Positions 24,398 to 59,493 of a stretch of 64,000 bases of DNA are shown piece after piece. The translations under genes and the position numbers were made by a program. The number at the start of each line of letters is the position of its first letter. Positions within the stretch are counted from its first letter, which is position 1. The stretch spans positions 2,811,103 to 2,875,102 of the forward strand of contig CAWJET010000001.1 in assembly GCA_963842085.1 (NCBI GenBank), read 5' to 3'. The notes under the pieces are model-generated. The model was not told the DNA's origin, ran no database searches, and saw only the letters and a list, made by a program, of their open reading frames with translations. Source of the stretch: an uncultured delta proteobacterium. GTDB lineage: Bacteria; Desulfobacterota; Binatia; Binatales; Binataceae.

Positions 24398-24403
24398 ACC
24401 GCG

Positions 24404-26649: not shown

Positions 26650-26659
26650 GGAGCGTCCA

Positions 26660-29460: not shown

Positions 29461-29467
29461 GGCAGTT

Positions 29468-34909: not shown

Positions 34910-35021
34910 AGACGCTTTGTTTAGTCGAACGCCTTTGGCAAGGAAACGGGCGAGCGTGAGAGCGTTGGACCATTGAGATTTGCCGATGACGATTGCGCGA
35001 TGCGCGTGTTACAATCACTTG

Positions 35022-36008: not shown

Positions 36009-36057
36009 AACCCGAGGTGGTTTCACACTTCCTTCGGCAGGGGTGACCCCTGCCCCC
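36005..36057. repeat. REP-like intergenic element, family 1, copy 2
   Basis: GTGAAACCCGAGGTGGTTTCACACTTCCTTCGGCAGGGGTGACCCCTGCCCCC forms two adjacent hairpins and overlaps the rSAM stop codon. Confidence 0.45.
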
Positions 36058-36148
36058 AGTGAAAAGAAAAGATGAGGGACTTCGTCCGTGTCAGAACTAT
36101 TTAGCGGAGAGCGCGAGATTTTTTCTCCTCGATTGTTCCCGCGCGGTG

Positions 36149-37372
36149 TTAGAAGGTCATCGGCAGAGACTGCAGGCCGCGCAGACTCATCGCGGGCCGC
36201 CATTTCGGGTTCGGGTCGGCGAGCGCCAGCTTGGGCATCCGGCGAAGAATCGTTTCGAATGCGATGCGCCCTTCCGCTTTTGCGAGCACTTCGCCGATGC
36301 ATCGATGGGGTCCGGCGGCGAATGACAGGTGATAGTTGTCGGGACGCGTGATGTCGAGCTTGTCAGGTTCCGGAAATCGCTCCGGGTCGCGATTGGCAGC
36401 GCCCAGGAACACGACCACGTGCTCGCCGCGCGGAATCGTCCTGCCAGCGAGTTCGATGTCTTCGCTGGCGGTGCGGAAAGTCACCTGCACCGGGCTGTCG
36501 AAACGCAGGAACTCATCGAGCGCGGACTCGATTAGTGACGGGTCGGATCTCAGGCGCGCTAAAGCGTCGGGATTGCGGAACAGCGCCAGCATCCCGTTGC
36601 CGATCATGTTCATCGTGGTTTCGTGGCCGGCCAGCAGCGTGAACATCGCGCTGAACACTAGTTCCTCCTCGGTCTTTAGTTCGCCGCGGCCTTCGGCGGC
36701 CACCATGATGCTGATCAAATCCTCGCGCGGATGCTTGCGGCGGTCGGCGGCCAGATCCGTGAAATAGCGGCGCACATCCGCGATCGCCTGGCGCACTTCC
36801 ACGCCCGGGTCGTTCGCACTGATAACGGGGTCGAGCGGCACGCCGAGCGTGCGCATCCAGTCGCGAAACATCGGCTTGTCCGCGTCAGTGGCGCCCATCA
36901 CCTCGGCGAGCACGTCGATCGGAAATGGAAACGCGACGTCCTTGATCAAATCCATCGAGCCGCGCGCCTGGACCGCGTCGAGCAGGTAATCGACGATGTT
37001 CTGAATCCGGGGCTGCAGTCCGTCCACGACGGGCGGCGAAAAAAAAGTGTTCATCAGCTTGCGCAGACGCGTGTGGTCGGGAGGATTGCGAAAAACGATC
37101 GCATGCTGCAGCGCCTCGCGCATCGACTTGAGGCCGTCGTCGGGCGGGAAGGCGTCGAGCGCGTTGAGATCGAAGGCGAGGAAGCGCTTGTCGCGCAGAA
37201 CGTCGAGGCAGTTGTCGTAGCGCGTAGAAAGCCAGAATCCAATCGGGGTCCGCAGGAGAGGGTGGCGCGTGCGCAGGAATCTGTAGAGCGGATAAGGATT
37301 GGCCGAGAAGAGACGGCCGTACATCCGGCTGGCAACGCGGCTAACGCGGGCAAAGGTAGTCGAGGAGGCCAT
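36149..37372 (-). CDS. Cytochrome P450
   Basis: The heme-binding loop FSAGPHRCIG, ExxR and the rest of the P450 fold; 407 aa. Confidence 0.9.
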   Translation of the reverse strand: MASSTTFARVSRVASRMYGRLFSANPYPLYRFLRTRHPLLRTPIGFWLSTRYDNCLDVLRDKRFLAFDLNALDAFPPDDGLKSMREALQHAIVFRNPPDHTRLRKLMNTFFSPPVVDGLQPRIQNIVDYLLDAVQARGSMDLIKDVAFPFPIDVLAEVMGATDADKPMFRDWMRTLGVPLDPVISANDPGVEVRQAIADVRRYFTDLAADRRKHPREDLISIMVAAEGRGELKTEEELVFSAMFTLLAGHETTMNMIGNGMLALFRNPDALARLRSDPSLIESALDEFLRFDSPVQVTFRTASEDIELAGRTIPRGEHVVVFLGAANRDPERFPEPDKLDITRPDNYHLSFAAGPHRCIGEVLAKAEGRIAFETILRRMPKLALADPNPKWRPAMSLRGLQSLPMTF

Positions 37373-37885
37373 TAGTTATGCGTCCGGCAGTATATTTGCA
37401 CGCGCTATTGATTGGAACTGCGGTAGATTCCGGTGGGTGGATCGGGCGGGGAAAGGGCATTTTATACCACCTGTTGTGGTTCACTGAAAGGCCAACCACC
37501 ATCGGTAGCTTCGTTCCGTCAAAATTAATATTTCTGAAGCGGAAGTTGCCTGATGGTGAAGCATGGGCAGCGGCGAGGAAGTTTTCGTGAGAGTGGCGTC
37601 CATACGCATTGATAGCACGTCGGGCGCGGCGCGGTCAGGCTGAATAGTTCATCGCTGAACTGGGGGGGCTCACAGGGGGAAGAGAAGATGCGGATTCTCT
37701 GCCGCTCAGCTTGAACACGGCTGGTTACCCGAAGCTCAATCGCGCGGCACAGTTGTCTCTCACGCTATCCCTCTCCCAACGAACGGGCGAGAGAACCGGA
37801 CGGCAGCGGCCAGCCAGTTCCGACTTGGTAGCGATCTGGATTGCGTGGTATGGGGTGAGTCGAAACGCGATACGAGGAGATAGAT

Positions 37886-39046
37886 ATGTCGGTGAAGATC
37901 GAAGGTACGTGCGAGCCGCGGTTTAACAGCGTGCGTGACATTTTTGCGAATAGCTTTGAACATGACCTCGAAGTGGGGGCGGCGGTTGCTGCCGTCGTGG
38001 ATGGGAAACCGATCTTCGATTTGTGGGGCGGGTTCGCCGACAAGGCTAAGACCAAGCCCTGGACGCGCGATACGCTCGTCAACGTTTACTCGACGACCAA
38101 GGGGATTACGTCGATTTGTGCGCATCGGCTGGTCGATCAAGGCAAGCTCGATCTTGACGCGCCGGTGTCGAAGTACTGGCCCGAGTTTGCGCAGGCCGGC
38201 AAGGAAAAGATCCCCGTAAATTATCTGCTGAGTCATCGCGCGGGACTGCCCGCCGTAAGAAAGCAGTTACCGATGGACGCTTATACGAACTGGCCCGTGA
38301 TGTGTGCGGCGCTGGCGGCGCAGGAGCCGTGGTGGGAGCCGGGCACTGCGCACGGCTATCACGCGATCACATTCGGCTACCTGGTCGGCGAAGTGATTCG
38401 GCGGATCACGGGCAAGACGCCGGGAACTTACCTGCGCGAGGAAATCGCGGGGCCGCTCAAGCTCGATATCCATATCGGCGTGGATGCGAGTTTCGACCCG
38501 CGAATCGCGGAGCTGATTGGTGCCCCGCCGCCACCGCCGGGCAAGCCCGATCAGATCGCGGCGATGAGCGCCGATCCGGAATCGATGACCTACAAGGCGA
38601 TCGCGAATCCACGGCCGGTGGTCGATCCCGCGCTGGTGAACAGCCGCGCGTGGCGCGGTGCTGAAGTTCCGGCCGCAAATGGGCATGCTACTGCGAGAGC
38701 GCTCGCGGCATTGTACGGCGCGCTTGCGACCGGCGGCGAACTCAACGGTTATCGCGTGCTGACGCCGGCGAGTATCAAGCGCGCGCATACGGAACAGGCC
38801 AACGGCCCCGATCTTATTCTCGGGGTTGTATCGCGATGGGGTTTGGGGTTTCAGCTCAATCAGCCGGTGGCGCCGCTCGGGCCGAATCCGCGGACGTTTG
38901 GACATTCGGGGGCTGGCGGCTCGATTGGATTTGCCGATCCGGACGCGCGCGTCGGTTTTGGCTACACGATGAATCAGATGGGCTCCGACCCGCTGATCGA
39001 CGGGCGCGCGGCGGCGCTGTTCAACGCGATGTTCGCGGCGTTGTAG
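37886..39046 (+). CDS. Serine hydrolase of the beta-lactamase/esterase (class C-like) family
   Basis: An S-x-x-K active site (STTKG), a YxN-like region and 386 aa. Confidence 0.85.
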   Translation: MSVKIEGTCEPRFNSVRDIFANSFEHDLEVGAAVAAVVDGKPIFDLWGGFADKAKTKPWTRDTLVNVYSTTKGITSICAHRLVDQGKLDLDAPVSKYWPEFAQAGKEKIPVNYLLSHRAGLPAVRKQLPMDAYTNWPVMCAALAAQEPWWEPGTAHGYHAITFGYLVGEVIRRITGKTPGTYLREEIAGPLKLDIHIGVDASFDPRIAELIGAPPPPPGKPDQIAAMSADPESMTYKAIANPRPVVDPALVNSRAWRGAEVPAANGHATARALAALYGALATGGELNGYRVLTPASIKRAHTEQANGPDLILGVVSRWGLGFQLNQPVAPLGPNPRTFGHSGAGGSIGFADPDARVGFGYTMNQMGSDPLIDGRAAALFNAMFAAL

Positions 39047-39096
39047 AACATTCTTCGGCGCGCTAGCGCCGGAGAATAAATCCGCTTTTATCTTAA

Positions 39097-39160
39097 GTGA
39101 AACCCGCCTTGGGTTTCGCACTTCCTTGGGCAGGGGTGACCCGGGATTATCCCTGCACCC
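39097..39160. repeat. REP-like intergenic element, family 1, copy 3
   Basis: GTGAAACCCGCCTTGGGTTTCGCACTTCCTTGGGCAGGGGTGACCCGGGATTATCCCTGCACCC combines modules seen at 36005 and 10619. Confidence 0.45.
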
Positions 39161-39252
39161 AAGGTTAAATAGCGGAAGATGCGGGCTCCAGATAAAACGA
39201 TGCCGCCCGTCTTACTTCGGCGGGCGGCCGTTTTGTCCCTCTTTGTCTGAGT

Positions 39253-40119
39253 TCAGACTCCGGCCGACTTGTATAGCGCGCAGCGCAACTTGAAGAAGTG
39301 CGCCATCGAGGTGAGGTAGCGGACGCGCCATGCCGCCGCCATCTTGCCCTTGCTGAGATCGAGGCCGTGGCGCGGTCCGATCATGTCGTAGGCCATCTTT
39401 ATCCGGTGGAACAGATCGTCCGAGGAACCCGGGTCGGGCTGCGTAACGCCGCCGATCAGTTTGATCGATTCCGGGCTGTAGGCTGCCAGCGCGACCAGGC
39501 TGTCGGCAAACAGCTCGTCCTCTTCCGCCAGGTGATTGGCGAACGCCCCTTCCATGAAGGCCGTGTGGTCGGCTTTCTCTCCGACCAGCGAGCCGTAAAT
39601 GTAGTGGCCCAGTTCATGGCCGAGAGTCGCTGCCACGGCGCCGGGATGATGGGCCGTGTTGACGAAGATCACGAACTTGCTTTTCTCGCCGACGTCGGCG
39701 CGGCAGTAAAATCCACGCAGCGACAGCCCCGCGCCCGTGCGATATGGCTCGGCACGCAGTTCGAGCTCGCGCGGACCGAACAATTTGCCGAGATGACCGA
39801 GCAGCTGCGGGCTGCCGAGATCCGCCAGGCTCCCGTATGTCGGTGTGTGCTGCTTGATGTCATTCTCGACGATCTGCGCCAATTCCTTGGCCAGAGGCTT
39901 GGACGGAAGCGCGGGCACATCCACGTAATCGGCGGAGAGAATCTTTTTCAGGTCGGAAAGCTGATGGAGGACCCGGGTCCCGAGCGAGTTGAACGGAACC
40001 TTGATCTCGCCGAGCAGCTTGGAAACGAGATGGTCAACTTCACGAGTTACCAGCGCGTCCGGTTCTCGCGACGATATCCGTCTCGCCAGGGCTGGCGATG
40101 AGGCCAATGCTGCGCTCAT
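39253..40119 (-). CDS. ImmA/IrrE-family (DUF955) zinc metallopeptidase-like protein with extended N-terminal domain
   Basis: HELGHYIYG (HEXXH) lies at about residue 177, preceded by a roughly 170-aa domain. No adjacent HTH partner gene. Confidence 0.55.
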   Translation of the reverse strand: MSAALASSPALARRISSREPDALVTREVDHLVSKLLGEIKVPFNSLGTRVLHQLSDLKKILSADYVDVPALPSKPLAKELAQIVENDIKQHTPTYGSLADLGSPQLLGHLGKLFGPRELELRAEPYRTGAGLSLRGFYCRADVGEKSKFVIFVNTAHHPGAVAATLGHELGHYIYGSLVGEKADHTAFMEGAFANHLAEEDELFADSLVALAAYSPESIKLIGGVTQPDPGSSDDLFHRIKMAYDMIGPRHGLDLSKGKMAAAWRVRYLTSMAHFFKLRCALYKSAGV

Positions 40120-40732
40120 AAAACGACCATCGGGACGACCTTACAAGCCCGTCGGCATGATCGGCACGCTATACTAAATGACTGGTACTGCTTTTCAAAA
40201 CCCATCTAACTCGCGTTAATTGAGCAAATCGTATGCCACACTACCTATAGATAGTGCGATTAAATGCCATACCAGTAATGGCGTGGAGAACTTCGTTATG
40301 CGGCGTTTCTGCAACCCAACAAGGGCACTTTTGAACCAAAGGCTCGACGGGGAGCCAGCCGGAGGTGTCCGAATGCTCCGGCCGCTCGCACCGCCGCAGA
40401 TAGGCGTCGAGGGCGACGCCGAGGCATGCTTCGACCGCGCCGGGGTCCAATCCGGCATCGCCGAAGTGATCTGACTCTCCCGCATCATCGCGCCCGTGGC
40501 GCTTTGCAGCGCGAATTTGCTTTGCCCGACGCGGCCATGAGCCACATTGTCTAACCGGTTACCTACAACCAGTCAAGCCCTTCACTACGAACTGTAGGAC
40601 AGTTTTAATAACCATTTTGATGCAGTCGGAACCCGGCGGCGTTATTCGCCGGCCGTTATCCGACCCACGAAAGCGCCCACAAATCGCAACGGTTGCCACG
40701 ATCGTTGCGGCTTGCCATTAGTGTTCAGTTTC

Positions 40733-42871
<2,139 letters not shown>

Positions 42872-42953
42872 CGAGATCTGATTGTTGAATCAGGGGGACT
42901 CGCACGGTCTATACTGCAACACAGGCAGCTGTTCCAGGCGGGAGAATCTCGGG

Positions 42954-44603
42954 ATGATCGACTTTCGAACCGAACCGTCCGCATACCGGCATTGGCGCTT
43001 GAGCTTCGCCGGGCCGGTCGCGACGCTGGCGATGGACGTGGACGAAAAGGGCGGCCTTGCGCCGGGCTACGAGCTCAAGCTCAACTCCTATGACCTCGGC
43101 GTCGATATCGAGCTCAACGACGCCGTGAATCGGCTTCGCTTCGAGCATCCCGAAATAAAATGCGTGATCGTCACGTCGGGCAAAGAGCGCGTGTTCTGCG
43201 CCGGCGCGAACATCAGGATGCTCGGCCTGTCGAGCCATCCGTTCAAAGTGAATTTCTGCAAGTTTACCAACGAGACGCGCAATGCGATCGAAGACGCGAC
43301 GCTCAACTCGGACCAGTACTACATGACTGCGATCGGCGGGGCGTGCGCCGGCGGCGGCTACGAACTCGCGCTCGCGACCGACTATATAATGATGGCGGAC
43401 GATGGTTCGACCAGCGTTTCGCTGCCGGAGGTCGCATTGCTCGGCGTGCTGCCGGGCACCGGCGGACTGACCAGGCTGGTCGACAAGCGCCGCGTCAGGC
43501 GCGACCGCGCGGATTTTTTCTGCACAACAGAGGAAGGACTGAGGGGCAAGCGGGCGGTGGATTGGCATTTGGTGGACGAAGTCGTACCGCGCTCGCAACT
43601 CATGGAGTGGGCGTCGCAGAGAGCGCTCGAATTCGCGGCGCGTTCAGCGGGTTCTACGCCTCCGCGTGGGATATCGCTCGGCCGGCTCTCGCGCGAGGTC
43701 GCGGAGCGACGGATTAAGTATGCGCACTTGACGATCGACATCGATCGCGACAATTCCACTGCGGCGTTCACTGTCGAGGGTCCGGAGAACCAGGCCCCGC
43801 GCCGGGTCGAAGATGCTCGCGCGATTGGAGCGGACTTCTGGCCGTTGGCGATTGCGCGCGAACTCGAAGACGCGATCCTGCATCTGCGCTTCAATCAGGA
43901 GACTGTCAGGACTTGGATCTTTCGCACGCGAGGCGATCCGGTGCTGGTGCAGTCGCACGACGCATTCCTCGACGCCAACGCTGATGACCGGCTGATCCGT
44001 GAAATCCGGCTCTACCTGAAGCGCACGCTGAAACGGCTCGATGTCAGCTCGCGCTCCGTCTTCGCGTTGATCGAGCCGGGTTCGTGCTTTTGCGGAACTC
44101 TGCTGGAGCTGGCGCTGGCGTCGGACCGCGCGTACATGCTGCGCGGACTGCGGGAAGGTGACGAGTCGATGCCGGCGAGCATCGGCCTCACGGAAATGAA
44201 CTTTGGCGCGACGCCGATGTGCAACGGCTTGACGCGGCTGGAGAGCAGATTCCAAGGCACGCCCGAGCGCGTCGAGGAGCTGCGCGGCAGGATTGGCGAG
44301 CAGATCGATGCATCGTTGGCAGAGCAACTGGGACTGGTTACGTTCACGCCCGACGATATCGACTGGGACGACGAGGTCCGCATTGCGCTCGAAGAACGCG
44401 CGGCGTTCTCGTCGGACGCGCTGACCGGGATGGAGGCTTCGCTCCGATTCGGCGGGCCGGAGACGCTCGAGTCAAAAATATTTGCGCGTCTGTCGGCGTG
44501 GCAGAACTGGATCTTTCAGCGCCCGAACGCGGTCGGTGAAAAAGGCGCGCTGAAACTCTATGGCACCGGAGCGCGGCCGGAATTCGATCCGAGGAGGGTC
44601 TGA
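42954..44603 (+). CDS. boxC: 2,3-epoxybenzoyl-CoA dihydrolase (benzoyl-CoA-dihydrodiol lyase) BoxC-like
   Basis: A double crotonase-fold protein of about 550 aa with an N-terminus (MIDFRTEPSAYRHWRLSFAGPVATLAMDVDE...KLNSYDLGVDIEL) matching my memory of the BoxC family signature. It is immediately upstream of boxB. Confidence 0.7.
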   Translation: MIDFRTEPSAYRHWRLSFAGPVATLAMDVDEKGGLAPGYELKLNSYDLGVDIELNDAVNRLRFEHPEIKCVIVTSGKERVFCAGANIRMLGLSSHPFKVNFCKFTNETRNAIEDATLNSDQYYMTAIGGACAGGGYELALATDYIMMADDGSTSVSLPEVALLGVLPGTGGLTRLVDKRRVRRDRADFFCTTEEGLRGKRAVDWHLVDEVVPRSQLMEWASQRALEFAARSAGSTPPRGISLGRLSREVAERRIKYAHLTIDIDRDNSTAAFTVEGPENQAPRRVEDARAIGADFWPLAIARELEDAILHLRFNQETVRTWIFRTRGDPVLVQSHDAFLDANADDRLIREIRLYLKRTLKRLDVSSRSVFALIEPGSCFCGTLLELALASDRAYMLRGLREGDESMPASIGLTEMNFGATPMCNGLTRLESRFQGTPERVEELRGRIGEQIDASLAEQLGLVTFTPDDIDWDDEVRIALEERAAFSSDALTGMEASLRFGGPETLESKIFARLSAWQNWIFQRPNAVGEKGALKLYGTGARPEFDPRRV

Positions 44604-46033
44604 TGCCGATCAACTATTCCGAGCGAATTCCCAACAACGTGAATCTCACCGACGACCGCCGCCTGCAGCGCGCGCTCGAAGCGTGGCAGCCCGGCTTTTT
44701 GCAATGGTGGAGCGAGATGGGACCCGAGAATTTTCAGGGCTGCGACGTGTATCTGCGGACTGCGACTTCGACCGACGCGCAGGGCTGGGCGACATTCGGA
44801 TACGTCAAGATGCCGGACTATCGATGGGGGATTTTTCTGGCTGACCCCGAACCCGATCGCCGGATTCCGTTCGGAGAGCATAAGGGAGAGCCGGTCTGGC
44901 GCGAGGTGCCGGGTGAACATCGGGGCGTCCTGCGCCGCCTTATCGTCACGCAGGGCGACACCGAACCCGCGTCGGTCGAGCAACAGCGGCACCTCGGCAG
45001 GACATGCCCGTCGCTCTACGACCTGCGCAATCTTTTCCAGGTCAACGTGGAAGAAGGGCGCCATCTATGGGCGATGGTCTATCTGCTGCAGGCCTACTTC
45101 GGACGCGATGGCCGCGAAGAGGCCGAGGCCTTGCTCCGGCGCCGGTCGGGGAACGCCGACAACCCTCGCATCCTCGGCGCGTTCAACGAGAAGACGCCAG
45201 ACTGGCTGTCGTACTTCATGTTCACGCATTTCACCGACCGTGACGGCAAGTATCAGCTCGCGAGCCTGGCCGAATCGGGATTCGATCCGCTGGCGCGCAC
45301 CTGCCGCTTTATGCTGACCGAGGAGGCGCATCACCTGTTCGTTGGCGAATCGGGAGTGAGCCGGGTAATCAGCCGCACCTGCCAACTGATGAAAGAGCAT
45401 AACACTGGGGTAGTAAGTGAGTACGGTGGGATCGACCTCGCAGTTATTCAAAAGTATATAAACTTTCATTACTCAGTCTCGCTTGATCTGTTCGGCTCGG
45501 AATTATCGACTAATGCAGCCAATTACTACAGCGCAGGTCTGAAAGGGCGCTTCAAGGAAACCGACAGAGACGACGACCATCAACTCAAGCGAAGCGGTTA
45601 CTCGGTATCGAAGCCGGTCAATGGAGTAATCATTCAGACCGAGCAGCCTGCGCTGATTGCGTTGAATGAAACTCTTCGCGACTCCTACATTGCCGACTGC
45701 GAGCGGGCGCTGGCGCGATGGAACAAGATTATTCGCGCGGCGGCGATTGGCTTCGAGCTCAAGCTGCCGCATCGGGGATTTCGGCGCTCGATAGGCGAAT
45801 TCGCGGGCGTCAATGTGACGCCGGACGGAAAGATAATCACCGAGACGGAATGGCAACAGCGCAAATCGGAGTGGATACCGACCCAGGCCGACCGCGAATT
45901 CGTGGCATCGCTCATGCAGCCTTTCACCGCGCCCGGTCAATTCGCGGGCTGGATCGCGCCGCCCGCGCGCGGCATCAACCATCAAGCGCTCGACTTCGAG
46001 TACGTGACCGCATTGCCAACAGAAGCGAATTGA
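44603..46033 (+). CDS. boxB: Benzoyl-CoA 2,3-epoxidase subunit B (diiron oxygenase component)
   Basis: The N-terminus MPINYSERIPNNVNLTDDRRLQRALEAWQP... and internal EEGRHLWAMVYLL / TEEAHHLFVGESG carboxylate-His diiron motifs match my memory of BoxB; 476 aa. It overlaps the boxC stop (TGATG). Confidence 0.75.
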   Translation: MPINYSERIPNNVNLTDDRRLQRALEAWQPGFLQWWSEMGPENFQGCDVYLRTATSTDAQGWATFGYVKMPDYRWGIFLADPEPDRRIPFGEHKGEPVWREVPGEHRGVLRRLIVTQGDTEPASVEQQRHLGRTCPSLYDLRNLFQVNVEEGRHLWAMVYLLQAYFGRDGREEAEALLRRRSGNADNPRILGAFNEKTPDWLSYFMFTHFTDRDGKYQLASLAESGFDPLARTCRFMLTEEAHHLFVGESGVSRVISRTCQLMKEHNTGVVSEYGGIDLAVIQKYINFHYSVSLDLFGSELSTNAANYYSAGLKGRFKETDRDDDHQLKRSGYSVSKPVNGVIIQTEQPALIALNETLRDSYIADCERALARWNKIIRAAAIGFELKLPHRGFRRSIGEFAGVNVTPDGKIITETEWQQRKSEWIPTQADREFVASLMQPFTAPGQFAGWIAPPARGINHQALDFEYVTALPTEAN

Positions 46034-46083
46034 TCGACACGCTTGACTCTGGACTATGGTCAAGGGTCTATCGTGAGGCACAA

Positions 46084-46503
46084 ATGACGATTGGCCGAGT
46101 AGCTAATGCGGCGGGAGTGAGCATAGACACGATCCGCTTCTACGAGCGGCGGGGTTTGATAGCAGGACCGCGGCGGAGCGTTTCGGGTTACAGGAACTTT
46201 TCCGAAGACGTGCTCGATCGCCTGCGTTTCATCGGCGATGCGAAGCGGCTCGGATTTACCCTGAAGGAAATCCGGGAGTTGCTGTCGCTGGGCGTGAAAT
46301 CGACGACCGAATGCGGCCCGGTCACGCGAAAAGCGGAAGCGAAGTTAGCGGAGATGAACCAGGAAATCGGCCGCCTGCAGCGCCTGCGGCTCACGCTGCG
46401 CCAGATGATCGAGGAGTGCGGCGGGAATTGTGCAGCGTCGTATAGGTCGGTTGGAGAAGCTCCCAGAAGCAGAATCTTAAATCGCGCGAAAAACGCGCGC
46501 TGA
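46084..46503 (+). CDS. MerR-family transcriptional regulator
   Basis: MerR N-terminal HTH (MTIGRVANAAGVSIDTIRFYERRGL), a coiled-coil region and a C-terminal Cys pair (ECGGNC). The last eight codons lie inside the family-2 repeat element. Confidence 0.8.
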   Translation: MTIGRVANAAGVSIDTIRFYERRGLIAGPRRSVSGYRNFSEDVLDRLRFIGDAKRLGFTLKEIRELLSLGVKSTTECGPVTRKAEAKLAEMNQEIGRLQRLRLTLRQMIEECGGNCAASYRSVGEAPRSRILNRAKNAR

Positions 46504-46552
46504 GTAAGGACCCTCACCTTCATCCTCTCCCTTGCAGGGAGAGGGGAAGAGA
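46471..46552. repeat. Miniature two-hairpin repeat element, family 2, copy 2
   Basis: About 85% identical to 16212-16297, with the same CGCGCG hairpin and CCTCTCCCT/AGGGAGAGG hairpin. It overlaps the 3' end of the MerR gene. Confidence 0.5.
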
Positions 46553-46592
46553 AGCGGCCCGGCCGCAGATCGGAGTGCGAGAGGAGACGCGC

Positions 46593-46820
46593 ATGGAAGT
46601 TGTTATTTACACGAATGCAGGGTGCTCGGCCTGCGCTCAGGCGAAAGAGTTTCTCACGCGGCACAACGTCAGCTACATCGAAAAGAGCATCGCCAAAGAT
46701 CCCTCGCTTATCGATGAGCTGGCCAGCCTTGGTTTTCGCGCGGTTCCCGTTATCCGCGTCGGCAACGAAACGATGCTGGGATTCAGCGCGGTGAAGTTGA
46801 GGAGGATGCTCGGACTGTGA
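46593..46820 (+). CDS. Glutaredoxin-like protein (NrdH/Grx family, CxxC)
   Basis: MEVVIYTNAGCSACAQAKEFL... is a thioredoxin-fold N-terminus with a CSAC active site; about 75 aa. Confidence 0.7.
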   Translation: MEVVIYTNAGCSACAQAKEFLTRHNVSYIEKSIAKDPSLIDELASLGFRAVPVIRVGNETMLGFSAVKLRRMLGL

Positions 46821-48144
46821 GGGACTGCGGCTCGAGCGCGAGCGGTTGCGCGGCCGCAGTCGCTTGCTGAATCGCGGAGACGGGATGGGCGCAGTCGGTC
46901 GCGAACCAATACGCTGCGATGTATCCGGTCAGCAGAGCGATGAAGCTGGTTTCCTCGAGCGCGCGCGCCAGCCATGGGAAGTCGAGCTGAAACCCGGTCG
47001 GCGGCGGCACCAGGAAGCGGTTGAAGACGCGCAGCGAAACCGCGCTGAGCATGTAGCACAACGCCGCCATCCAGACGGCCCGCGAGCCGGACCGTCCATC
47101 GGCCTCGGATGTGACCATTTGCACGAACGGAAGAGTCAGTAGCAGTAGATAGTGATGCCATCCGACAGGTGACAGCATGATCGCCGTCGCAATCCACAGT
47201 GAGTATATTCTCCAGTCAGAATCGCCGCGGTTCGTATCGGACAGCGTCGCACGAATAGTCACTCCAAATACTATTAAGTCTGCGACGGCGATGCAGGTGC
47301 GTCTGACCCAATCGGCCGGCGAGCCGGCGGCGGTACCAGTAATCGCCCAGAACATCCGCGACACGAATGGCGCGAGCGAAAGATTGTCCACCCGCTTCAT
47401 CATTGAATAGTCAGTGACCCACGCCGCGCCGTGAACGAAGCTGAGAGATTGCGCGAGCCCCAACGTCGCGACGGTCACGACTACCCCTGCCGCGACTCCG
47501 CACGTCGCAAACGCAACCGCCCGCCATTTCCGACGAATCGCAAAATAGCCGACGAGCAAAAGCGGATAGGCCCGCAACAGCCCGGCCGACGCGATTAACA
47601 AGCCCGCGGCGCCGTCGCGCCGGCGTTCCATCGCGCGCATTGCGCCGGCCATCAGCAGCAGGATTATGAGCTGCGACTGCCCCCAGTAAAGATTCAAATT
47701 CACCGGCGCCGACATCAAAATGAGTCCCGCCAGCAACCACGCCGTGCGCCCGGAAAGCCCGCGCCGATATGCCAGCAACAGGTACATCGCGGCTGCCAAT
47801 GCCGAAAAGTTGATTGCGGACCAGAGCCAGAATGCGAACCGTGGCCGCAACCAGGTTAGTGGCTCGAAGCAGACCAGAAACGTCGGCGTGTCGGAGGCGT
47901 AAATCAGACCGCCGGTCTCAAGGCCGAGCCGGGCGGCGATCGGCGTCAAATCGGAACGGTAAGGGTCGATTCCATGCCGGAGCGCCCACGCCGATTCGTA
48001 CTTGTCCGAGAAGTCGCGGCCACGCCATTGTGCGCGCATTTTCGTCAAGGTGCCGGTCAGGATCAGGAGCGCGCAGAGCCAGACGACAGCCAGGATCGCT
48101 GGCTGACGCATCGCGGCAGCGATTCGTTCACCGTTCACGCCCAA
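46783..48144 (-). CDS. Integral membrane glycosyltransferase, DUF2029/GT87-like (putative)
   Basis: A polytopic protein with the conserved N-terminal loop DFSDKYESAWALRHGIDPY, resembling the DFxxYYxAA...G..PY motif of GT87. Its 3' end overlaps the glutaredoxin gene by 38 nt. Confidence 0.55.
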   Translation of the reverse strand: MGVNGERIAAAMRQPAILAVVWLCALLILTGTLTKMRAQWRGRDFSDKYESAWALRHGIDPYRSDLTPIAARLGLETGGLIYASDTPTFLVCFEPLTWLRPRFAFWLWSAINFSALAAAMYLLLAYRRGLSGRTAWLLAGLILMSAPVNLNLYWGQSQLIILLLMAGAMRAMERRRDGAAGLLIASAGLLRAYPLLLVGYFAIRRKWRAVAFATCGVAAGVVVTVATLGLAQSLSFVHGAAWVTDYSMMKRVDNLSLAPFVSRMFWAITGTAAGSPADWVRRTCIAVADLIVFGVTIRATLSDTNRGDSDWRIYSLWIATAIMLSPVGWHHYLLLLTLPFVQMVTSEADGRSGSRAVWMAALCYMLSAVSLRVFNRFLVPPPTGFQLDFPWLARALEETSFIALLTGYIAAYWFATDCAHPVSAIQQATAAAQPLALEPQSLTVRASSSTSPR

Positions 48145-48303
48145 GTATGGGCAAACCGCGGCGCGCGAGACTACAAAAGTGCTGAGCCCTCTGCGTTACC
48201 TGGAGAACTCAAAATCGTTCGCTATCGGGTGTAACCGATGAGTAGCGACGCTTTTGTCGCAAAACCATGACTGCTTAATCCGTTCGGTTGCCAATAGATG
48301 ACG

Positions 48304-50058
48304 CTAGTCTGGCGACTCGTCGACGGTGCGCTGCTCGATCGCAATGGTGGTCTCGTAGGCGGAGGACAGTTCGATCACTCGGCTGTGAAATTTGCGCAGA
48401 CTTTGTCGGTGTCCGATGCTGATGAACGCAGTCGGCGAGTTCGCGAGCAGTGAGTACAGGCTTTCCTCGGCAGCCATATCGAGCGCGCTGGTGGCTTCGT
48501 CGAGAAAGGCGAAGCGAGGACGATTGAGCAGGAGGCGTGCGAACACAAGCCGCTGTTGTTCGCCGCCCGACAGCACGTCTGCCCAGTGAAGTTCGGCATC
48601 CAGACCTCCGAACTGATCGGGCAGATGCGCGAGACCGACCATGCGCAACACCTCGAGCAGCTCGTCGTCGCTTACTTCGCTTGCGCGCGGATATTGGAGC
48701 TGTTGGCGAAGCGAGCCGAGTATCAAGTACGGCTTCTGCGGCATGAACATGATCTGCTCGGTCGGAGGCCGCAAGATCCGGCCGCTGCCGAAATTCCAAA
48801 TGCCGGCGACTGCCCTCATCAGCGAGGTTTTGCCCGCGCCACTCGGTCCCGTGAGCAGCAGCGTGTCGCCGTACTTCACCTCGACGGACAGATTGCGCTG
48901 CAACTCCCGCTTCCAATCGGGCGTCATCAGGCTCACGTTGTCGAGTGAAACTCGTCCGTCCGCTTCGCCGACTTCGATGTGCGCGCCACCGTCCGCATTC
49001 TCGCTGCCGGCGTCGTCGCAACGCTCTTCGAACGCGGCGAGACGATTGACCACCGAGGCGTAGTCGGTGAGCCCCTGGAATTGATCGACCACGAGCGAGA
49101 GCGATCCCTGCAAAACCGAAAATGCGTACGCGGCCTGTGTGAATTCGCCCAGTTCGAACCGCCCCGAAAAGTACGCGCCGGCAAGCACAAAATAGGGCAC
49201 CAGGCCGGCCGCGTTGTCGTAAGCTGCGGTGAAGAACGTCAGATGGCGCTGCCAGAGAATCAGCAGTTTGAAATTTCTGATCACGTTGGCGAACCGCCGC
49301 CGCAGTTGATGCGCCTCGTCGCGCGCGCCGTCGTACAAGGCGATCGCTTCGGCGTTATCGCGCGCGTGGACCAACGCGAAGCGGTAATCAGCCTCGAATC
49401 GTTGCTGATTGAAGTTGATTACCACCAGGCGGCGTCCGATCACCGCGGCGAGCCAGGTGCCGATAAGCGCATAGCCGATCAGACACACCGCGAGCCGTCG
49501 CGAGATCAACCACAGGATTCCGAAAAATGTCACCGCGGTTACGACCGCCTGCAAGGCGGTCATGGAATAGTTGAGCGCGCCGCCGGTGAAGCTGTTGATG
49601 TCTTCGCTGATGCGCTGGTCCGGATTGTCGACCGAGTGATCGCGCATGATGTGGTAGAGCGCGTTTCGATGCAGCATGCGGTGAACGAACAATTCGGTCA
49701 TCCAGTCGCGCCAATCGATTCGGAGCAGTCCGCTGAGGTAGGGATAGAAGGCGGCGATCGGCACGAACAACACGACCCAGGTCGCGAACAACACCATCAA
49801 GTGGTAGAAGCGCGCAGAGTCTTTGTTCTGCAGCGAGTTCATGATGTCACGGGATACATAACTGAAGATAGCTTGCATCCCAATCGTGCCCAGGCTCAGC
49901 ACGATCAGCACACCGATAAGCAGGAGTGCTGTCCCGCGCCGCTCCGAACTCCAGTAAGGACCTGCGAGCCGCCACAGGCGCTTCCAAAATAGCCGATCGA
50001 AGCGATCTGAAGTGGCGCGGGCAAGGTCGCCGTTATCTGACGAGTCATTTCCGTTCAT
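48304..50058 (-). CDS. ABC transporter, fused permease/ATP-binding half-transporter (ABC_membrane_2 / YddA / ABCD-like)
   Basis: An N-terminal six-TM domain is followed by Walker A (GPSGAGKTS), the LSGGEQQR signature and Walker B (FAFLDEATSALD). Confidence 0.85.
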   Translation of the reverse strand: MNGNDSSDNGDLARATSDRFDRLFWKRLWRLAGPYWSSERRGTALLLIGVLIVLSLGTIGMQAIFSYVSRDIMNSLQNKDSARFYHLMVLFATWVVLFVPIAAFYPYLSGLLRIDWRDWMTELFVHRMLHRNALYHIMRDHSVDNPDQRISEDINSFTGGALNYSMTALQAVVTAVTFFGILWLISRRLAVCLIGYALIGTWLAAVIGRRLVVINFNQQRFEADYRFALVHARDNAEAIALYDGARDEAHQLRRRFANVIRNFKLLILWQRHLTFFTAAYDNAAGLVPYFVLAGAYFSGRFELGEFTQAAYAFSVLQGSLSLVVDQFQGLTDYASVVNRLAAFEERCDDAGSENADGGAHIEVGEADGRVSLDNVSLMTPDWKRELQRNLSVEVKYGDTLLLTGPSGAGKTSLMRAVAGIWNFGSGRILRPPTEQIMFMPQKPYLILGSLRQQLQYPRASEVSDDELLEVLRMVGLAHLPDQFGGLDAELHWADVLSGGEQQRLVFARLLLNRPRFAFLDEATSALDMAAEESLYSLLANSPTAFISIGHRQSLRKFHSRVIELSSAYETTIAIEQRTVDESPD

Positions 50059-50330
50059 GTCTTGTTAGACGTTAGCAACGAGCGAAGTGATTCCGATCTT
50101 GCCTCTGCAGCGCGCCTGAATTAGTTCGCCGAGGTTGAAGAATCAGGGCAATTTAACGGTTGAATTCCGGAACTTCCTGCATCGTCAACAAGATTAAAGA
50201 GACCTGGTTGGCCACCAACACGACCAGCCGTAACTGGTTCAGCGGGGCGATCGGACACTCTATACGGTGATCAATCCAGTTGCGTAGCCGCACTCTGTCT
50301 ACCAGATGCGCTCGAGGGAATGTAAGGATT

Positions 50331-50732
50331 ATGAAAAAGACTATGAAAAAGATGCACTTGCTCGGCGGCAGCTTCCTCCTCGTCACTGCGTTGACGCTGG
50401 GCTTCGCAATGCCAGCATTCGCGGAAACCGTGGTGGTGAAGATGTTCGACACACCATCCAAATTCGTTCCGAACCCGGTGAAGATCAAAGTCGGCGATAC
50501 TGTAGAGTGGGAAAATAAGGGTGAAACCATCCATACTGCCACCACCGATCCGTCCCAGGCGCCCGACAAAAGCTGGGCGTCCGTGCCGCCCGGGGCGGAG
50601 ACCTGGGACTCCGGTTACATGAACTCGGGGGACACCTGGAGCTACACGTTCAAGGTTCCCGGAGTTTACCACTACTTCTGCACGACGCACGTAAAAGAAG
50701 GAATGAAGGGCGAAATTGACGTAGAGAAATAG
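50331..50732 (+). CDS. Cupredoxin (type-1 blue copper protein, pseudoazurin/plastocyanin-like)
   Basis: A signal peptide and type-1 copper ligands His...Cys-x2-His-x4-Met (HYFCTTHVKEGMKGE). Confidence 0.8.
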   Translation: MKKTMKKMHLLGGSFLLVTALTLGFAMPAFAETVVVKMFDTPSKFVPNPVKIKVGDTVEWENKGETIHTATTDPSQAPDKSWASVPPGAETWDSGYMNSGDTWSYTFKVPGVYHYFCTTHVKEGMKGEIDVEK

Positions 50733-50913
50733 GCACTCGGGGCGCGACTGCTACCGTGGAGACCGACGATAGCAAACCGCAACCAGCCTGATCTTTGAAT
50801 GCGCAGCGAAGAGCGAAGGTGCCGACGCCGAAACCGACGGCCTAAAGTCCGCCCACGGCGGTGAGTCCATAGAGCGAGCGCGGTTGCCCCACACATCCTG
50901 GTATTTTTCAATA

Positions 50914-50996
50914 TGCCGAGGGCGGGACTTGAACCCGCACGTGGTTGCCCACGGAGGATTTTGAGTCCTCTGCGTCTGCCATTCCGCCACCTCGGC
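50914..50996 (-). tRNA. tRNA-Leu (anticodon CAA)
   Basis: The reverse complement folds as a class II tRNA: acceptor GCCGAGG/CCTCGGC, anticodon stem GAGGA/TCCTC with loop CTCAAAA, long variable arm, T-arm GCGGG-TTCAAGT-CCCGC. No encoded CCA. Confidence 0.8.
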
Positions 50997-51277
50997 ACTC
51001 GAAGAAGCTTGCAGACTCAGCCGGGTCATCTTAGCAAAGGTAGCGCGGCCGGCAATGGCGACGGATAGGGCCAACTCACGTATTGGTCGCGACCCCAGCA
51101 TTGATCGCTTGTTTGGTCTCGGGTGGCGCGACGCGGCGACCTCGATAGACAATCGACGGCGACTGCCGCACTAGCGTGATAGTCAAAAGGTAGTATAGAA
51201 CTGAATAGCAAGTACAATACTCACTTGTATCTTGCGATTGTTTGCTTAGTATAGTGTAGCGAGCGCACTATGTATTC

Positions 51278-51946
51278 ATGGAAGCGGTCGCCGTTGGCAT
51301 TCCCGCACCGGTCCCGGTTGCGCAACCGCGCGTCACACTCGCAGGCCTGAAGCATGCCCTTGGCGATTGTCTGCTGGCCGCGTCGTTCTTGCTCGCGACG
51401 TTGCCGGCCGGACGCGAGCTCAGCTTTACTCTGGCGGGAGCGGCGAACGTGGTATGGCTGGCGGGCGCCGCGATCATGGCCGTCATGTCGCTCGCGCGAT
51501 TTGCCCCGCGCACGGCCAGCGTAAATCTGCGCACGCTGACCGCGTCGGGCGGCATGCTGATCCTCCCGTGTTTCATGCGGCCGAGCGACCTTGCCACCGG
51601 CGCGCTGGCGACCACCGGACTTCTTTTCGAGTTGTTCGGCGTAGTGCTGACCCAGGTCGCGCGCGTCTATATGGGTCGCAGCTTCGGTGTGCTGCCCGCG
51701 AACCGCGGCATCGTGTCGAAGGGGCCGTTTCGATGGGTTCGTCATCCCATATATTTCGGATGGCTGATGCTTTCGATTGGCTACGCGATGTCCTACGCGA
51801 ACGGTCGCAATATCATGCTGGTCGTGGTGACGCTTCCGTTCATGGTCTGGCGAATCGAGCAGGAAGAAGTGCATTTGAGGGCGGATCCCGCATACCGCCG
51901 CTACATGGATCGAGTCCGGTACCGTTTGTGCCCGGGAGTTGTCTGA
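51278..51946 (+). CDS. Isoprenylcysteine carboxyl methyltransferase / phospholipid methyltransferase family membrane protein
   Basis: C-terminal motif GPFRWVRHPIYFGWLM...RIEQEEVHLRADPAYRRYMDRVRYRL typical of ICMT/PEMT. Confidence 0.75.
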   Translation: MEAVAVGIPAPVPVAQPRVTLAGLKHALGDCLLAASFLLATLPAGRELSFTLAGAANVVWLAGAAIMAVMSLARFAPRTASVNLRTLTASGGMLILPCFMRPSDLATGALATTGLLFELFGVVLTQVARVYMGRSFGVLPANRGIVSKGPFRWVRHPIYFGWLMLSIGYAMSYANGRNIMLVVVTLPFMVWRIEQEEVHLRADPAYRRYMDRVRYRLCPGVV

Positions 51947-51982
51947 GCCGAATTGGCTGCCGCAGGCGCGGACGCCTTCCAG

Positions 51983-54900
51983 CTACTCCCGCGGCGAACG
52001 AGCTTCGGTGCGGCCGCTGCCGCGCGTGCCCATCAGGTAGATTCCACCCGCGAGCGGGCTCGAAAGAATCATCGCGAACGCCAGTCCGCCGATCACGGCG
52101 ATTGCCAGCGGTTGCTGAACCTTGGCGCCCGCACCGTAGCCGAGCGCGAGCGGTAACAGCCCCGCCGCCGTGGCGAGCGTGGTCATGATGATCGGGCGCA
52201 GCCGCACCGTCGCCGCCTCGAATAGCGCCGCGCCCGGTCGTACGCCCGCGCCGACTTCGCGCTCGGCATGGTCGAGCAGCAGGATGCCGTTCTTGGCGGT
52301 GATTCCCGCGACCATGATGATGCCCATGAACGATGAGATGTTGAGCGTCATGCCGGTCACGGCGAGCGCGATGAAACTGCCCGCGAGACACGACATCGCG
52401 GCCACCAGGCATGCAACCGCGGGCGCGAGCCGCGCGAACTCCCAGACCAGGATCAGGAACATCATGATCGTACCCGCCACCAGCACCAGCGCGAGCTCGT
52501 GAAAGGCCCGCTGCTGCTGCGCGTAAAGCCCGCCGTATTCGAGCGACACGCCGGCCGCCAGCGGCATCCGCGACAGGCTCTGCTTGACCTGGCTGACGGC
52601 AGTGCCGAGGTCGATACCCTCCAGCCGCGCCGTGACGTGCACGACGGACCGCTGGCGCTCGCGCGCGATCTCGCTGGTCTCGCCGAGAAAGTCGATCTTC
52701 GTGACCGCCGACAGCGGCACACGCGCATTCGTGCTCGACTTGAGAATCACTTCCGACAGAGTCCCGAGATCTTCGTGGAATGCGTCCGGGTATCGCACCC
52801 GCACGCCGACCAGCCGATCGCCCGACAGGACGTTGGTGGCGACCGTCCCTTGAATCACCGAATCGAGCGCGGTGCGGATGTCATCGGCGCTCAGTCCGTA
52901 GTGCGCGGCCGAAGTGTTGTCGACGACGACCGCCTGCTCCGGGATGCTCTCGACGATTCCGTCGAACACGTCCACCAGGCCGTGAATCGAGCGCATCCGA
53001 TCAGCCACTTGCCGCGCCGTCGCCTCGATCGTCTTCTGGTCGGGGCCGAAGACCTTGACCTCGATCGGCTCCGGCACGCCTGAAAGATCGCCGATCAGGT
53101 CCTGCAACACCTGCGAGAACTCGATCGATACTCCCGGCACCGAGCTCAGGATGCGTTCGCGGATGGAATCGATGACCGTATCGATGTCGCGTTTGCGGTC
53201 CGGTTTCAGCCGCACGGACATGTCTCCGCGATTCGATTCGGTCAGAAAAAATCCAAGCTGCGTGCCGGTGCGGCGGCTGAACGCAACGACTTCGGGCGTC
53301 GTTTTCAGAATCGACTGAATCGAGTCGAGCAACGCAGTCGTGTCGGCCATCGTGCTCTGCGGCGGCGTTAGGTAGTCGAGGACAAACGCGCCTTCGTCGA
53401 GCGGCGGCAGATAGTCGGTGCCGATACTGTTGTAAACGAAGTACGCGACCAACATCGAAACCGCAGCACCAAGGATTGCCAGCGCGGGAATCCGGATGAT
53501 CGGCCGGATCGCAGTCAGAAACAGCGTCTGCACGCCGCGATAGATTCGTCCCGCCGCGCGCGCGCGCCCGCGAAACCGCGCCATCGCAAGTTCTATCGCG
53601 GGCGTGAAGTAGATGGCGAGTATCAGCGAAATCGCCAGTCCTCCGCCCAGCGTCGCCGCCAGTGAGCGGAAGAAAACGCCGGTCACACCCGAAATAAAAA
53701 CCAGCGGCCCGAATACGACGATCACCGTCATGGTCGCGGCGAACAGCGGGCGCCGGAGACGCTTGAGCGCTTCGGCCACTGCCGTACCAGCGGATTGACC
53801 CGACGCGAGTTCGCGATGAATCGCTTCGATCATTACGATCGCGTCGTCGATGAAAAGTCCGATTCCGGCCGCCAGCCCGCCCAGCGTCATCATGTTGAAG
53901 GTCAGTCCCGCGGCTTTCATCACGATGAATGTGATCGCAACCGTGCACGGCACCACCGTCGCCGCAACCAGCGCGCTGAGCGGACTCATCGTGAACACCA
54001 GCACCACCAGCACCGCCAGCGCGAGGCCGAGCAGGATCGCGTCGCGCACGCTGTTGAACGATTCGCTGACCAGTTCCGACTGATCGTACGAAACCGAAAA
54101 CTGAACGTCGGGATAACGCTGGCGAAACTCCGCGAGGATCTGCCGCGCCTCGGCCGCGATCGTCACCGTATTGCCGCTCGGCCGCCGCGAGATTCCGACC
54201 AGCACCGCCGCGCCGTTCTCGGACGCGGCCCTGATGTAGTCTTCGCGGATTCCCAATTCGACCGAACCCACGTCGCTGACGCGCACCGGTTGACCGCCAA
54301 TAGCCGACAGCGGCACCGCGGCAATCTGGCCGGCCTGGTGCAGATCGCTGGTCACCACCGTCAGCAGCATCCGGTGCGATTCGTTCATCCGGCCCGCCGA
54401 CGCGATGACGTTATTGTGCGCCAGGCCCGCGACGACCTGGGCCGGCGACATGTCATGCTGCAGCATCCGCGCCGGATCGAGCCGCACCACGAATTCGCGG
54501 TACTTGCCGCCGATTACGCCGACCCGGTAGGTGCCCTCGATGCGATGCAGGCTCGGAACGAGATCGTAGTTCGCGATGTCGGTCAGTTCGGGCAGGCTGC
54601 GAATCTTCGAGCTCAGGCTGAGATCGACGATCGGAAAGGTGCCGGTCGTCAGCAACAGCGCGTCGAGCGTCGTATCGTTCGGGAGCTGCGCGCGCGTATG
54701 CGCGACTGCGGCGTTCAGCATCTGGTAGCTGGTTTGTGGGTCGGCGTCTTCGCCGAACGTAACGTCTATCTCGGCGCTGCCGCGGGTCGTCGTCGATCGA
54801 ACCAGTTCCACACCGGGCACGGTGTATGCGCTTTCCTCCAGCGGCCGCGTTACCGACGCGAGCATCTGTTCCGCCGGCAGATCGCCGCTGTCGGCGAGAA

Positions 54901-57284: not shown

Positions 57285-57354
57285 TCGCGAAAGAGTAACA
57301 GTGGTCCGCCGACCGGCCAAATTAATGGACGTTAAGCTGATTAATGAGCGGCGG

Positions 57355-58731: not shown

Positions 58732-58759
58732 CGGCGGCCAGCGTGCGGCGGCTGCGGCG

Positions 58760-59440: not shown

Positions 59441-59493
59441 ACCCCCCGATGCTGGCACGCCGCCGCCTCCAAAAAAAGCGTGCGCCCACCCCG

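Follow-up and report, generated by a model that had tools for sequence, protein, structure and literature searches.

We analyzed a 64-kb stretch of DNA (the window) from a Candidatus Binatus soil bacterium, in which a boxC-boxB pair, encoding the dihydrolase and the oxygenase component of the box route of benzoyl-coenzyme A (CoA) degradation, occurs with neither boxA nor a CoA ligase gene in the window. We consider it likely that this pair is a working, vertically inherited BoxBC module, and that its reductase and CoA-activating enzyme are encoded elsewhere in the genome. A missing linked boxA is the norm in many bacterial lineages and is typical of the clade to which this BoxB belongs. The two genes are:

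42954-44603, + strand: boxC, 2,3-epoxybenzoyl-CoA dihydrolase of 549 amino acids (aa) with a double crotonase fold (TIGR03222, ECH_1, 2W3P)
44603-46033, + strand: boxB, oxygenase component of the diiron benzoyl-CoA 2,3-epoxidase, 476 aa (TIGR03225, 3PER/3PM5)

Identity and Active Sites of BoxC and BoxB

We found that both proteins score above the equivalog cut-offs of NCBIfam and align over their full length with crystallized enzymes, which bears out the identities proposed by an earlier reading made from the sequence alone (the sequence-only reading). BoxC reaches 878 bits with TIGR03222 (cut-off 712; residues 2-549 on profile positions 1-548), contains the Pfam ECH_1 domain and matches B. 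xenovorans BoxC (PDB 2W3P) with E = 4.5e-207, residues 2-549 corresponding to 11-556. BoxB reaches 832 bits with TIGR03225 (cut-off 499; residues 3-468 on profile positions 1-469 of 471) and its alignment with A. evansii BoxB (PDB 3PER/3PM5; E = 4e-216) has no large gaps. The boxCB locus is not a new kind of system, and NCBI already names both genes: the proteins are deposited for Candidatus Binatus sp. as 2,3-epoxybenzoyl-CoA dihydrolase (MGA7871149.1) and BoxB (MGA7871148.1). The records of BoxB, BoxC and the redoxin described below sit on contigs of up to 3.24 Mb. The TGATG overlap between the two genes (44601-44605) is real, the boxC stop codon TGA (44601-44603) sharing its last letter with the boxB start codon ATG (44603-44605).

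In A. evansii BoxB, the diiron center is held by Glu120, Glu150, His153, Asp211, Glu240 and His243, while Gln116, Thr119, Ser123, Phe193, Phe203, Phe206 and Thr210 orient the benzoyl moiety (PMC5489048). Alignment of the Binatus BoxB to 3PER/3PM5 shows all six diiron ligands to be identical (E120, E150, H153, D211, E240, H243), as are six of the seven substrate-orienting residues (Q116, T119, S123, F193, F206, T210), with F203 replaced by Tyr. The ligand and orienting positions are invariant in 81 aligned BoxB sequences, save for position 203, which is F, Y or L; Tyr is found there in 17 BoxB sequences from loci without boxA.

Could the pair act on an acyl-CoA other than benzoyl-CoA, as the sequence-only reading had allowed? 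Such a shift would be in line with the failure to find a benzoate-CoA ligase in the window and with the Tyr, not Phe, at position 203 in Binataceae and some Rokubacteria-type sequences. Yet 12 of the 13 active-site and substrate-orienting residues are identical to those of A. evansii BoxB bound to benzoyl-CoA, both proteins lie well above their equivalog cut-offs, and relatives carrying F203Y adjoin benzoate-CoA-ligase homologues (e.g., L026, L032, L038, L040). Since the active-site residues of BoxB and the full-length alignment of BoxC match the known enzymes, we regard a different substrate as very unlikely. Neither BoxB nor BoxC contains an extra domain able to replace a reductase.

By all sequence criteria the boxC-boxB pair appears functional. 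BoxB would epoxidize benzoyl-CoA at C2-C3, and BoxC, presumably made in step with BoxB by way of the overlapping stop and start codons, would hydrolytically open the ring of the epoxide, which is inhibitory, and so clear it as 3,4-dehydroadipyl-CoA semialdehyde and formate. The module would be read from a conserved promoter-like element of its own, without a BoxR regulator, and both the electrons for BoxB and the enzyme forming benzoyl-CoA would come from genes elsewhere, the usual state in this BoxB clade.

Missing Partner Genes and the Prevalence of boxB Without boxA

The window was searched by tblastn with BoxA, BclA and BoxR of the annotated Mycetohabitans cluster, with BoxR of a distant Binataceae locus (L012) and with the BoxD-position protein of locus L060. 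No homologue of BoxA was found in the 64 kb (best E = 0.065), nor any of benzoate-CoA ligase, BoxR or BoxD (best E 0.67-0.80), and the Pfam maps of the window contain no Fer4-FNR reductase, AMP-binding ligase or Aldedh domain. The lack of boxA and a CoA ligase gene noticed earlier thus holds for the whole window. Likewise, none of the loci of the Binatus group carries boxA, these and the other relatives being read with 10-kb flanks.

In distant Binataceae (L012, 11452-13211; L014, 11447-14177), boxR-boxC-boxB is followed by genes for a SnoaL-like protein and a family III CoA-transferase, with no CoA ligase; this arrangement hints at benzoate activation by CoA transfer in Binataceae of the L012/L014 type. 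The window encodes a family III CoA-transferase as well (11950-13185), which we rejected as an orthologue of the one adjacent to boxB in L012 because the two are only 28% identical.

To place the locus among its relatives, 83 BoxB loci, including 80 genome loci and two annotated records, were each searched for BoxA, BoxC, BclA and BoxR. We determined that boxA adjoins boxB in 28 of them and is out of reach in 55, a proportion biased toward the clade of this BoxB because the 80 genome loci were chosen as its best matches; unlike the proportion, the split between loci with and without linked boxA is not biased. At least 8 kb was available on both sides of boxB in 25 of the 55 boxA-less loci. The two groups compare as follows (boxA-linked vs boxA-less): boxC is present in 23/28 vs 54/55, a benzoate-CoA-ligase homologue in 18/28 vs 28/55 and boxR in 22/28 vs 13/55. 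Overall, boxC adjoins boxB in 77 of the 83 loci.

A phylogeny of BoxB had been proposed as a check by the sequence-only reading; in the neighbor-joining tree, all 28 boxA-linked loci form one clade of Burkholderiales, Rhodocyclales and a few Alphaproteobacteria, and the Binataceae BoxB falls outside it. The boxA-less loci include Binataceae, Rokubacteria/Methylomirabilota, Ferrovibrio, Reyranella, Actinomadura and Nonomuraea, along with single metagenome-assembled genomes (MAGs) labeled Dormiibacterota and Candidatus Cybelea. Both boxB and boxC are present on the 11.85-Mb chromosome of Nonomuraea gerenzanensis (filed among plasmids), on which no full-length BoxA match was found.

Clusters of this kind have been published. 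The box cluster of Sedimenticola selenatireducens CUZ was described as encoding boxB and boxC, and BoxB and BoxC were most abundant as proteins when the strain grew on benzoate plus O2, a condition in which the peptide counts of its box pathway (BoxB, BoxC) exceeded those on benzoate plus perchlorate 9-fold (PMC4453571). Clusters with boxBC only were reported from SAR324 SMAR bins (PMC4782131) and from UBA5794 actinobacteria (PMC12008989). As in Binatus, only boxB and boxC are named in these clusters; boxA is unmentioned in all three papers, which do not address the missing reductase. The published record fits a tight boxC-boxB coupling and a loose or absent linkage to the reductase. In contrast to Binatus, where glgX and merR-grx flank the pair, the boxBC-only clusters usually have an adjoining CoA ligase (SAR324). 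With boxA out of the neighborhood in 55 of 83 loci from several phyla, and with such clusters in print, the pair can hardly be called an orphan, as it had been at first.

Conservation, Selection and a Promoter-Like Element Upstream of boxC

Four co-directional + strand genes, boxC, boxB, merR and grx, lie downstream of glgX, as seen from the open reading frame (ORF) map and the sequence. The elements bordering the pair are:

40712-42871, upstream of boxC: glgX, glycogen-debranching gene
42885-42915, + strand: promoter-like element upstream of boxC, TTGAAT (42885-42890) and TATACT (42910-42915) separated by a 19-nucleotide (nt) spacer, recognized by conservation
other strand, converging on grx: GT87 glycosyltransferase gene

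The glgX-boxC-boxB-merR-grx-GT87 order is found in eight further Binatus genomes, in one of them on a 4.58-Mb contig, with merR missing from two of the eight (L011, L017). At a synonymous divergence (dS) of ~0.5-0.6 from the relatives, the ratio of nonsynonymous to synonymous substitution rates (dN/dS) is 0.075-0.09 for boxB and 0.09-0.13 for boxC, both lower than for glgX (0.17-0.21) and GT87 (~0.21-0.25, in full-length comparisons).

These data bear on the idea that the two genes serve no function at present and represent a piece of a box cluster that was acquired recently or is decaying. We hold this to be the least probable of all explanations, next to negligible. It would account for the lack of boxA, bclA, boxD and boxR in the 64 kb, for the mobile element seemingly integrated 5 kb away in one strain and for the frameshifts found in boxC or boxB of L018, L020 and L091. 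However, the strong purifying selection (dN/dS ~0.08-0.13 at dS ~0.5), the synteny conserved across Binatus species and a GC content of boxCB typical of the window all speak against it, so the suggestion of a horizontally acquired fragment falls away. As for the frameshifts, they occur in long-read assemblies that also split neighboring genes such as glgX and GT87 (GT87 in L001 as well), and for this reason they are probably indel errors of assembly and not recent inactivations; the protein sequence is conserved on both sides of them.

Between glgX and boxC, the TTGAAT and TATACT hexamers are invariant across five Binatus species while their surroundings vary, which suggests that boxCB has its own, predicted, promoter.

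The Electron Donor for BoxB

Our interpretation of boxCB as a working module supplied by genes elsewhere has several points to reckon with, in addition to the biased proportion of loci given above. When the ORFs of the 83 loci were clustered and recurrent neighbors identified by Pfam, no ferredoxin or flavin reductase was seen to recur beside boxCB in boxA-less loci. The absence of BoxA was observed within the 64 kb and the 10-kb flanks of the relatives, and BoxA-family genes can lie far from boxB, as on a Rhizobium plasmid and on Cupriavidus chromids; a BoxA-family gene away from boxB has also been described (PMC10803450). For this reason, the absence of boxA nearby says little about the whole genome. 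Moreover, a standard sigma-70 scan (16-18-nt spacer) of 40300-47000 found no promoter, the promoter assignments being based on conservation and similarity of hexamers.

The genes that do recur in boxA-less loci encode a SnoaL-like protein, a family III CoA-transferase, a thioesterase, RidA, a three-subunit Mo-hydroxylase, HTH-cupin and PaaX-like regulators and parts of ABC transporters. They are lineage-specific: SnoaL-like and family III CoA-transferase genes typify other Binataceae, the PaaX-like regulator Nonomuraea, and the three-subunit Mo-hydroxylase, HTH-cupin regulator, RidA and ligase the Rokubacteria-type loci. In two of the latter (L032, 3838-7768; L023, 3949-8314), genes for the Mo-hydroxylase (2Fe-2S, Mo and FAD subunits), which is 4-hydroxybenzoyl-CoA-reductase-like by architecture, and for the HTH-cupin regulator precede boxCB, while RidA and a benzoate-CoA-ligase homologue lie downstream.

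We next consider where BoxA itself is found. Among the best 120 of 8000 matches of the BoxA profile to a set of 5.8 billion proteins, all organism names are proteobacterial. Against 1.84 billion representatives at 50% identity, the profile retrieved two high-scoring full-length BoxA clusters, in which those members that bear a name come from proteobacteria (Bradyrhizobium), and also several full-length clusters of divergent sequence. Three divergent full-length BoxA-like Fer4-FNR reductases adjoin Rieske or P450 oxygenases, not box genes. These are L093 (10001-11200), L094 (8001-9176) and L096 (8001-9176), with ~360-435 bits on the BoxA profile and, as neighbors, Rieske oxygenase alpha subunits or P450 and small-ferredoxin genes. 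Because divergent members keep such company, the Fer4-FNR type of reductase is a general oxygenase partner and not specific to the box pathway, and a paralogue of this type could serve BoxB. The Rhizobium leguminosarum plasmid NZ_CP030763.1 (L090, 5274-8218) carries an annotated boxA, 57% identical to the Mycetohabitans BoxA, after a gene for an FAD-dependent oxidoreductase; the plasmid has no boxB.

An ordinary but dispersed pathway, in which other parts of the Binatus chromosome encode BoxD, benzoate-CoA ligase and a true BoxA orthologue, has to be weighed here, and we judge it rather unlikely, though it deserves serious attention. The precedent of BoxA-family genes lying away from boxB in other bacteria (PMC10803450) favors it. 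So does the retention of BoxR beside boxCB in other Binataceae (L012, L013, L016), which means that the canonical regulatory logic exists in this family, and the two BoxA clusters would conceal any Binatus BoxA that shares more than 50% identity with the proteobacterial proteins. Yet boxA is out of reach in all 55 boxA-less loci, although 28 of these keep bclA and 13 keep boxR; the Nonomuraea chromosome has boxB and boxC and no full-length BoxA; and the best 120 BoxA profile matches bear proteobacterial names only.

Given the clade-wide pattern and the Nonomuraea case, we lean modestly toward the view that BoxB receives its electrons from a ferredoxin/flavin reductase, general or paralogous, and not from a dedicated BoxA orthologue. 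A box pathway using another reductant, one of the options of the sequence-only reading, is possible. In its broadest form, which we put forward tentatively and rate as somewhat short of an even chance, a large BoxB clade spanning several phyla (Binataceae, Rokubacteria/Methylomirabilota, actinomycetes and many Alphaproteobacteria, e.g., Ferrovibrio and Reyranella) would work without any BoxA orthologue, drawing on a general ferredoxin/FNR pair or on a BoxA-like reductase that also serves P450 or Rieske oxygenases. Should this be true, the textbook description of BoxAB as a two-component system would be limited to one, mostly betaproteobacterial, branch. The matter of wider interest is the electron donor of BoxB in lineages without linked boxA, a question about the clade and not about this locus.

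The merR and grx Genes Downstream of boxB

A regulator gene and a redoxin gene follow boxB:

46039-46074, + strand: putative MerR-type operator/promoter, TTGACT (46043-46048) and TATCGT (46069-46074) with a 20-nt spacer and the dyad ACGCTTGAC / GTCAAGGGT
46084-46503, + strand: merR, MerR-family regulator of heavy-metal type, 139 aa, with Cys77, Cys112 and Cys116 (MerR_1, MerR-DNA-bind)
46593-46820, + strand: grx, NrdH/YruB-like redoxin of glutaredoxin fold, 75 aa, with a CSAC motif (Pfam Glutaredoxin)

The succession of a MerR-type regulator and a CxxC glutaredoxin-like protein was recognized at the outset, and the Pfam domains and the CSAC motif agree with it. The MerR protein combines MerR_1 and MerR-DNA-bind, i.e., a helix-turn-helix and a dimerization helix. 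Its NCBIfam scores remain below the cut-offs of MerR (107/150.85), ZntR (105.7/143), CueR (100.2/147.4) and CadR (81.9/151.45), and since all equivalog cut-offs are missed, the scores point to no particular effector. The best PDB matches are Tn501 MerR (5CRL) and a Bacillus MerR (4UA1); Cys77 and Cys112 fall on the positions of Cys82 and Cys117 in Tn501 MerR, and the third cysteine is at position 116. A homologue search returned close Binatus orthologues only. Like the metal-sensing MerR, ZntR, CadR and CueR proteins, the Binatus MerR has a winged helix-turn-helix, a dimerization helix and a Cys triad (77/112/116), and, as in operons of such regulators in which merR comes first, a putative long-spacer promoter with a dyad, the predicted operator, is found. 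It differs in its shorter metal loop (C-x3-C), in a C-terminal tail derived from a repeat element and in the predicted target, a small redoxin and not a transporter or reductase.

A long spacer with a dyad is a hallmark of MerR-family promoters. The arms of the inverted repeat (46039-46047 and 46059-46067) lie directly 3' of the boxB stop codon, and six Binatus loci show almost no variation in this region. The left half of the putative operator, CTTGACTCTGGA, resembles the E. coli zntA promoter. Because this long-spacer dyad element precedes merR, merR-grx appears to be a separate, self-regulated unit for metal or thiol stress. Control of boxCB by MerR was considered and rejected, the operator being downstream of boxB and no matching dyad being present upstream of boxC. 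Locus L011 also speaks against it: merR and the operator are cleanly gone together and grx starts 23 bp after boxB, while the element upstream of boxC is kept. In the BoxB tree, L011 is nested among merR-bearing relatives, so that its loss of merR is most simply a secondary deletion.

The redoxin (MGA7871146.1 in NCBI) reaches 51.5 bits with Pfam Glutaredoxin against a cut-off of 22.9, remains below the cut-offs of TIGR02196 (61.2 vs 88.55) and TIGR02194 (59.4 vs 85.75), and matches glutaredoxin 7C10 and NrdH structures in PDB. It shares with NrdH-redoxin and YruB a length of ~75 aa, the thioredoxin fold and an N-terminal CxxC; in contrast to NrdH, it scores below the cut-offs, has no nrdEF nearby and carries CSAC instead of CVQC, the motif typical of NrdH. 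Its dN/dS is ~0.09-0.18.

One might suppose that this glutaredoxin-like protein, possibly under MerR control, supplies BoxB with electrons in place of BoxA. In support of this, grx is located 3' of boxB in every Binatus locus that reaches that far, keeps its place after boxB in loci that have lost merR (L011, at a distance of 23 bp; also L017) and shows a dN/dS as low as that of boxB. Nevertheless, we think it extremely unlikely. Even at E = 0.01, none of the other 47 boxA-less loci showed grx next to boxB, grx is preceded by a separate MerR-type operator, and glgX and GT87 are just as syntenic, so that linkage seen in a single genus says nothing about function. CxxC redoxins act by thiol-disulfide exchange, and we know of no case of one reducing a carboxylate-bridged diiron center. 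Both merR and grx adjoin boxB in Binatus loci only, neither being found beside it outside the genus in the set of BoxB loci at the same relaxed threshold. As the linkage is confined to this genus, we take it to be, most likely, a chance feature of gene order in Binatus, and the separate operator likewise argues against counting MerR and the glutaredoxin as parts of the box system.

Farther downstream of merR-grx, at 50280-59593, are genes for a cupredoxin, a PEMT/ICMT methyltransferase, a histidine kinase with an OmpR-type regulator, and an RND pump with a CusB-like membrane-fusion protein and an outer-membrane factor. These metal-flavored genes could be the wider context of the MerR regulator.

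A Repeat Element in the merR Tail

The 3' end of merR lies in a repeat element, of which the window holds two copies:

46471-46548, + strand: double-hairpin repeat element of ~80 bp, first copy (21-mer, alignment, blastn)
16212-16294: second copy, between a gene of no known function and a transaldolase gene

The hairpins are formed by CGCGCG...CGCGCG and CCTCTCCCT...AGGGAGAGG. The copies are 89% identical (blastn, 46471-46548 region vs 16212-16294) and have an exact 21-mer in common (16270-16290 in the second), where none is expected by chance. The merR stop codon (46501-46503) and about the last 11 codons lie inside the ~80-bp repeat, in agreement with the sequence-only reading, which derived the terminus of the regulator from such an element. 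The inserted merR-grx stretch holding the repeat is limited to the lineages of the window and L008 and is absent from L009, L010, L018 and L020. The element folds at -41.3 kcal/mol (z = -3.3) and matches no Rfam family.

Comparison With Known Systems

Compared with the BoxABC systems of Azoarcus (Aromatoleum) evansii and Burkholderiales, the Binatus BoxB and BoxC are clear orthologues. BoxB is ~66-69% identical to its counterparts from Burkholderiales and Aromatoleum, the metal- and substrate-binding residues are the same save F203Y, and the boxC-boxB order is that of Mycetohabitans and Paraburkholderia. All 28 loci of the canonical clade carry boxA after boxB, whereas Binatus has none there; Binatus also lacks the upstream boxR and the divergent arm with bclA, boxD, DUF4863 and a hydrolase gene.

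PaaABCE is likewise a diiron oxygenase system acting on an aryl-CoA thioester, with product inhibition relieved by a downstream enzyme (PMC4498308). Its oxygenase is of the same superfamily as BoxB, which gives a weak match to the Paa-related structure 4MUD. Yet Paa comprises a multi-subunit oxygenase and its own reductase, PaaE, while BoxB is monomeric and benzoyl-CoA-specific. No paa genes are present in the window.

Binatus and its relatives are abundant uncultured soil bacteria, and benzoyl-CoA is a hub intermediate in the breakdown of lignin-derived and other aromatic compounds. The conserved BoxBC suggests that these bacteria feed benzoyl-CoA into an oxygen-dependent CoA-thioester route. 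Using boxA as a required marker of this route would miss most lineages outside Betaproteobacteria, and calls of an "incomplete box cluster" in genomes and metagenomes may be wrong.

Other Features of the Window

The nearest species-representative genomes are Candidatus Binatus/Binataceae MAGs, some filed as "uncultured delta proteobacterium" and one as Candidatus Acidiferrales, and the window sequence is also found in several soil metagenome assemblies. According to the Pfam maps, the window further encodes a citrate synthase, a thiolase/ChsH2/MaoC group, a P450, a beta-lactamase-fold esterase, an SbmA/BacA-type ABC protein, a cupredoxin, an RND metal-efflux set with a two-component system, and SBP56. 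The SBP56 protein (60126-61517, - strand) is full-length (622 bits) and belongs to a selenium-binding, methanethiol-oxidase-like family.

The region 19081-30280 holds an alternative complex III set (multihaem cytochrome, Mo-bisPGD-like ActB, NrfD-like protein and ActD), directly followed by caa3-type oxidase genes encoding COX2 with a cytochrome c domain, a COX1-COX3 fusion, COX4 and CtaG. The cytochrome P450 gene (36149-37372, - strand) has no ferredoxin or ferredoxin reductase gene nearby, and its product is a second oxygenase of the window whose redox partner must be encoded elsewhere.

A tRNA-Leu(CAA) gene (50913-50997, - strand), the sole match of the Rfam scan, is found 4.9 kb past the 3' end of boxB. 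With 99.94% identity, contig L001 (GCA_052916045.1) matches the window over positions 34603-50966; it then departs from the window inside this gene (from L001 position 16363 onward), continuing into ParG/ParA, NikA/MobC-like and TraG-type coupling-protein genes. This divergence looks like an integrative mobile element at the tRNA gene in one strain; the element is absent from the window and from L002.

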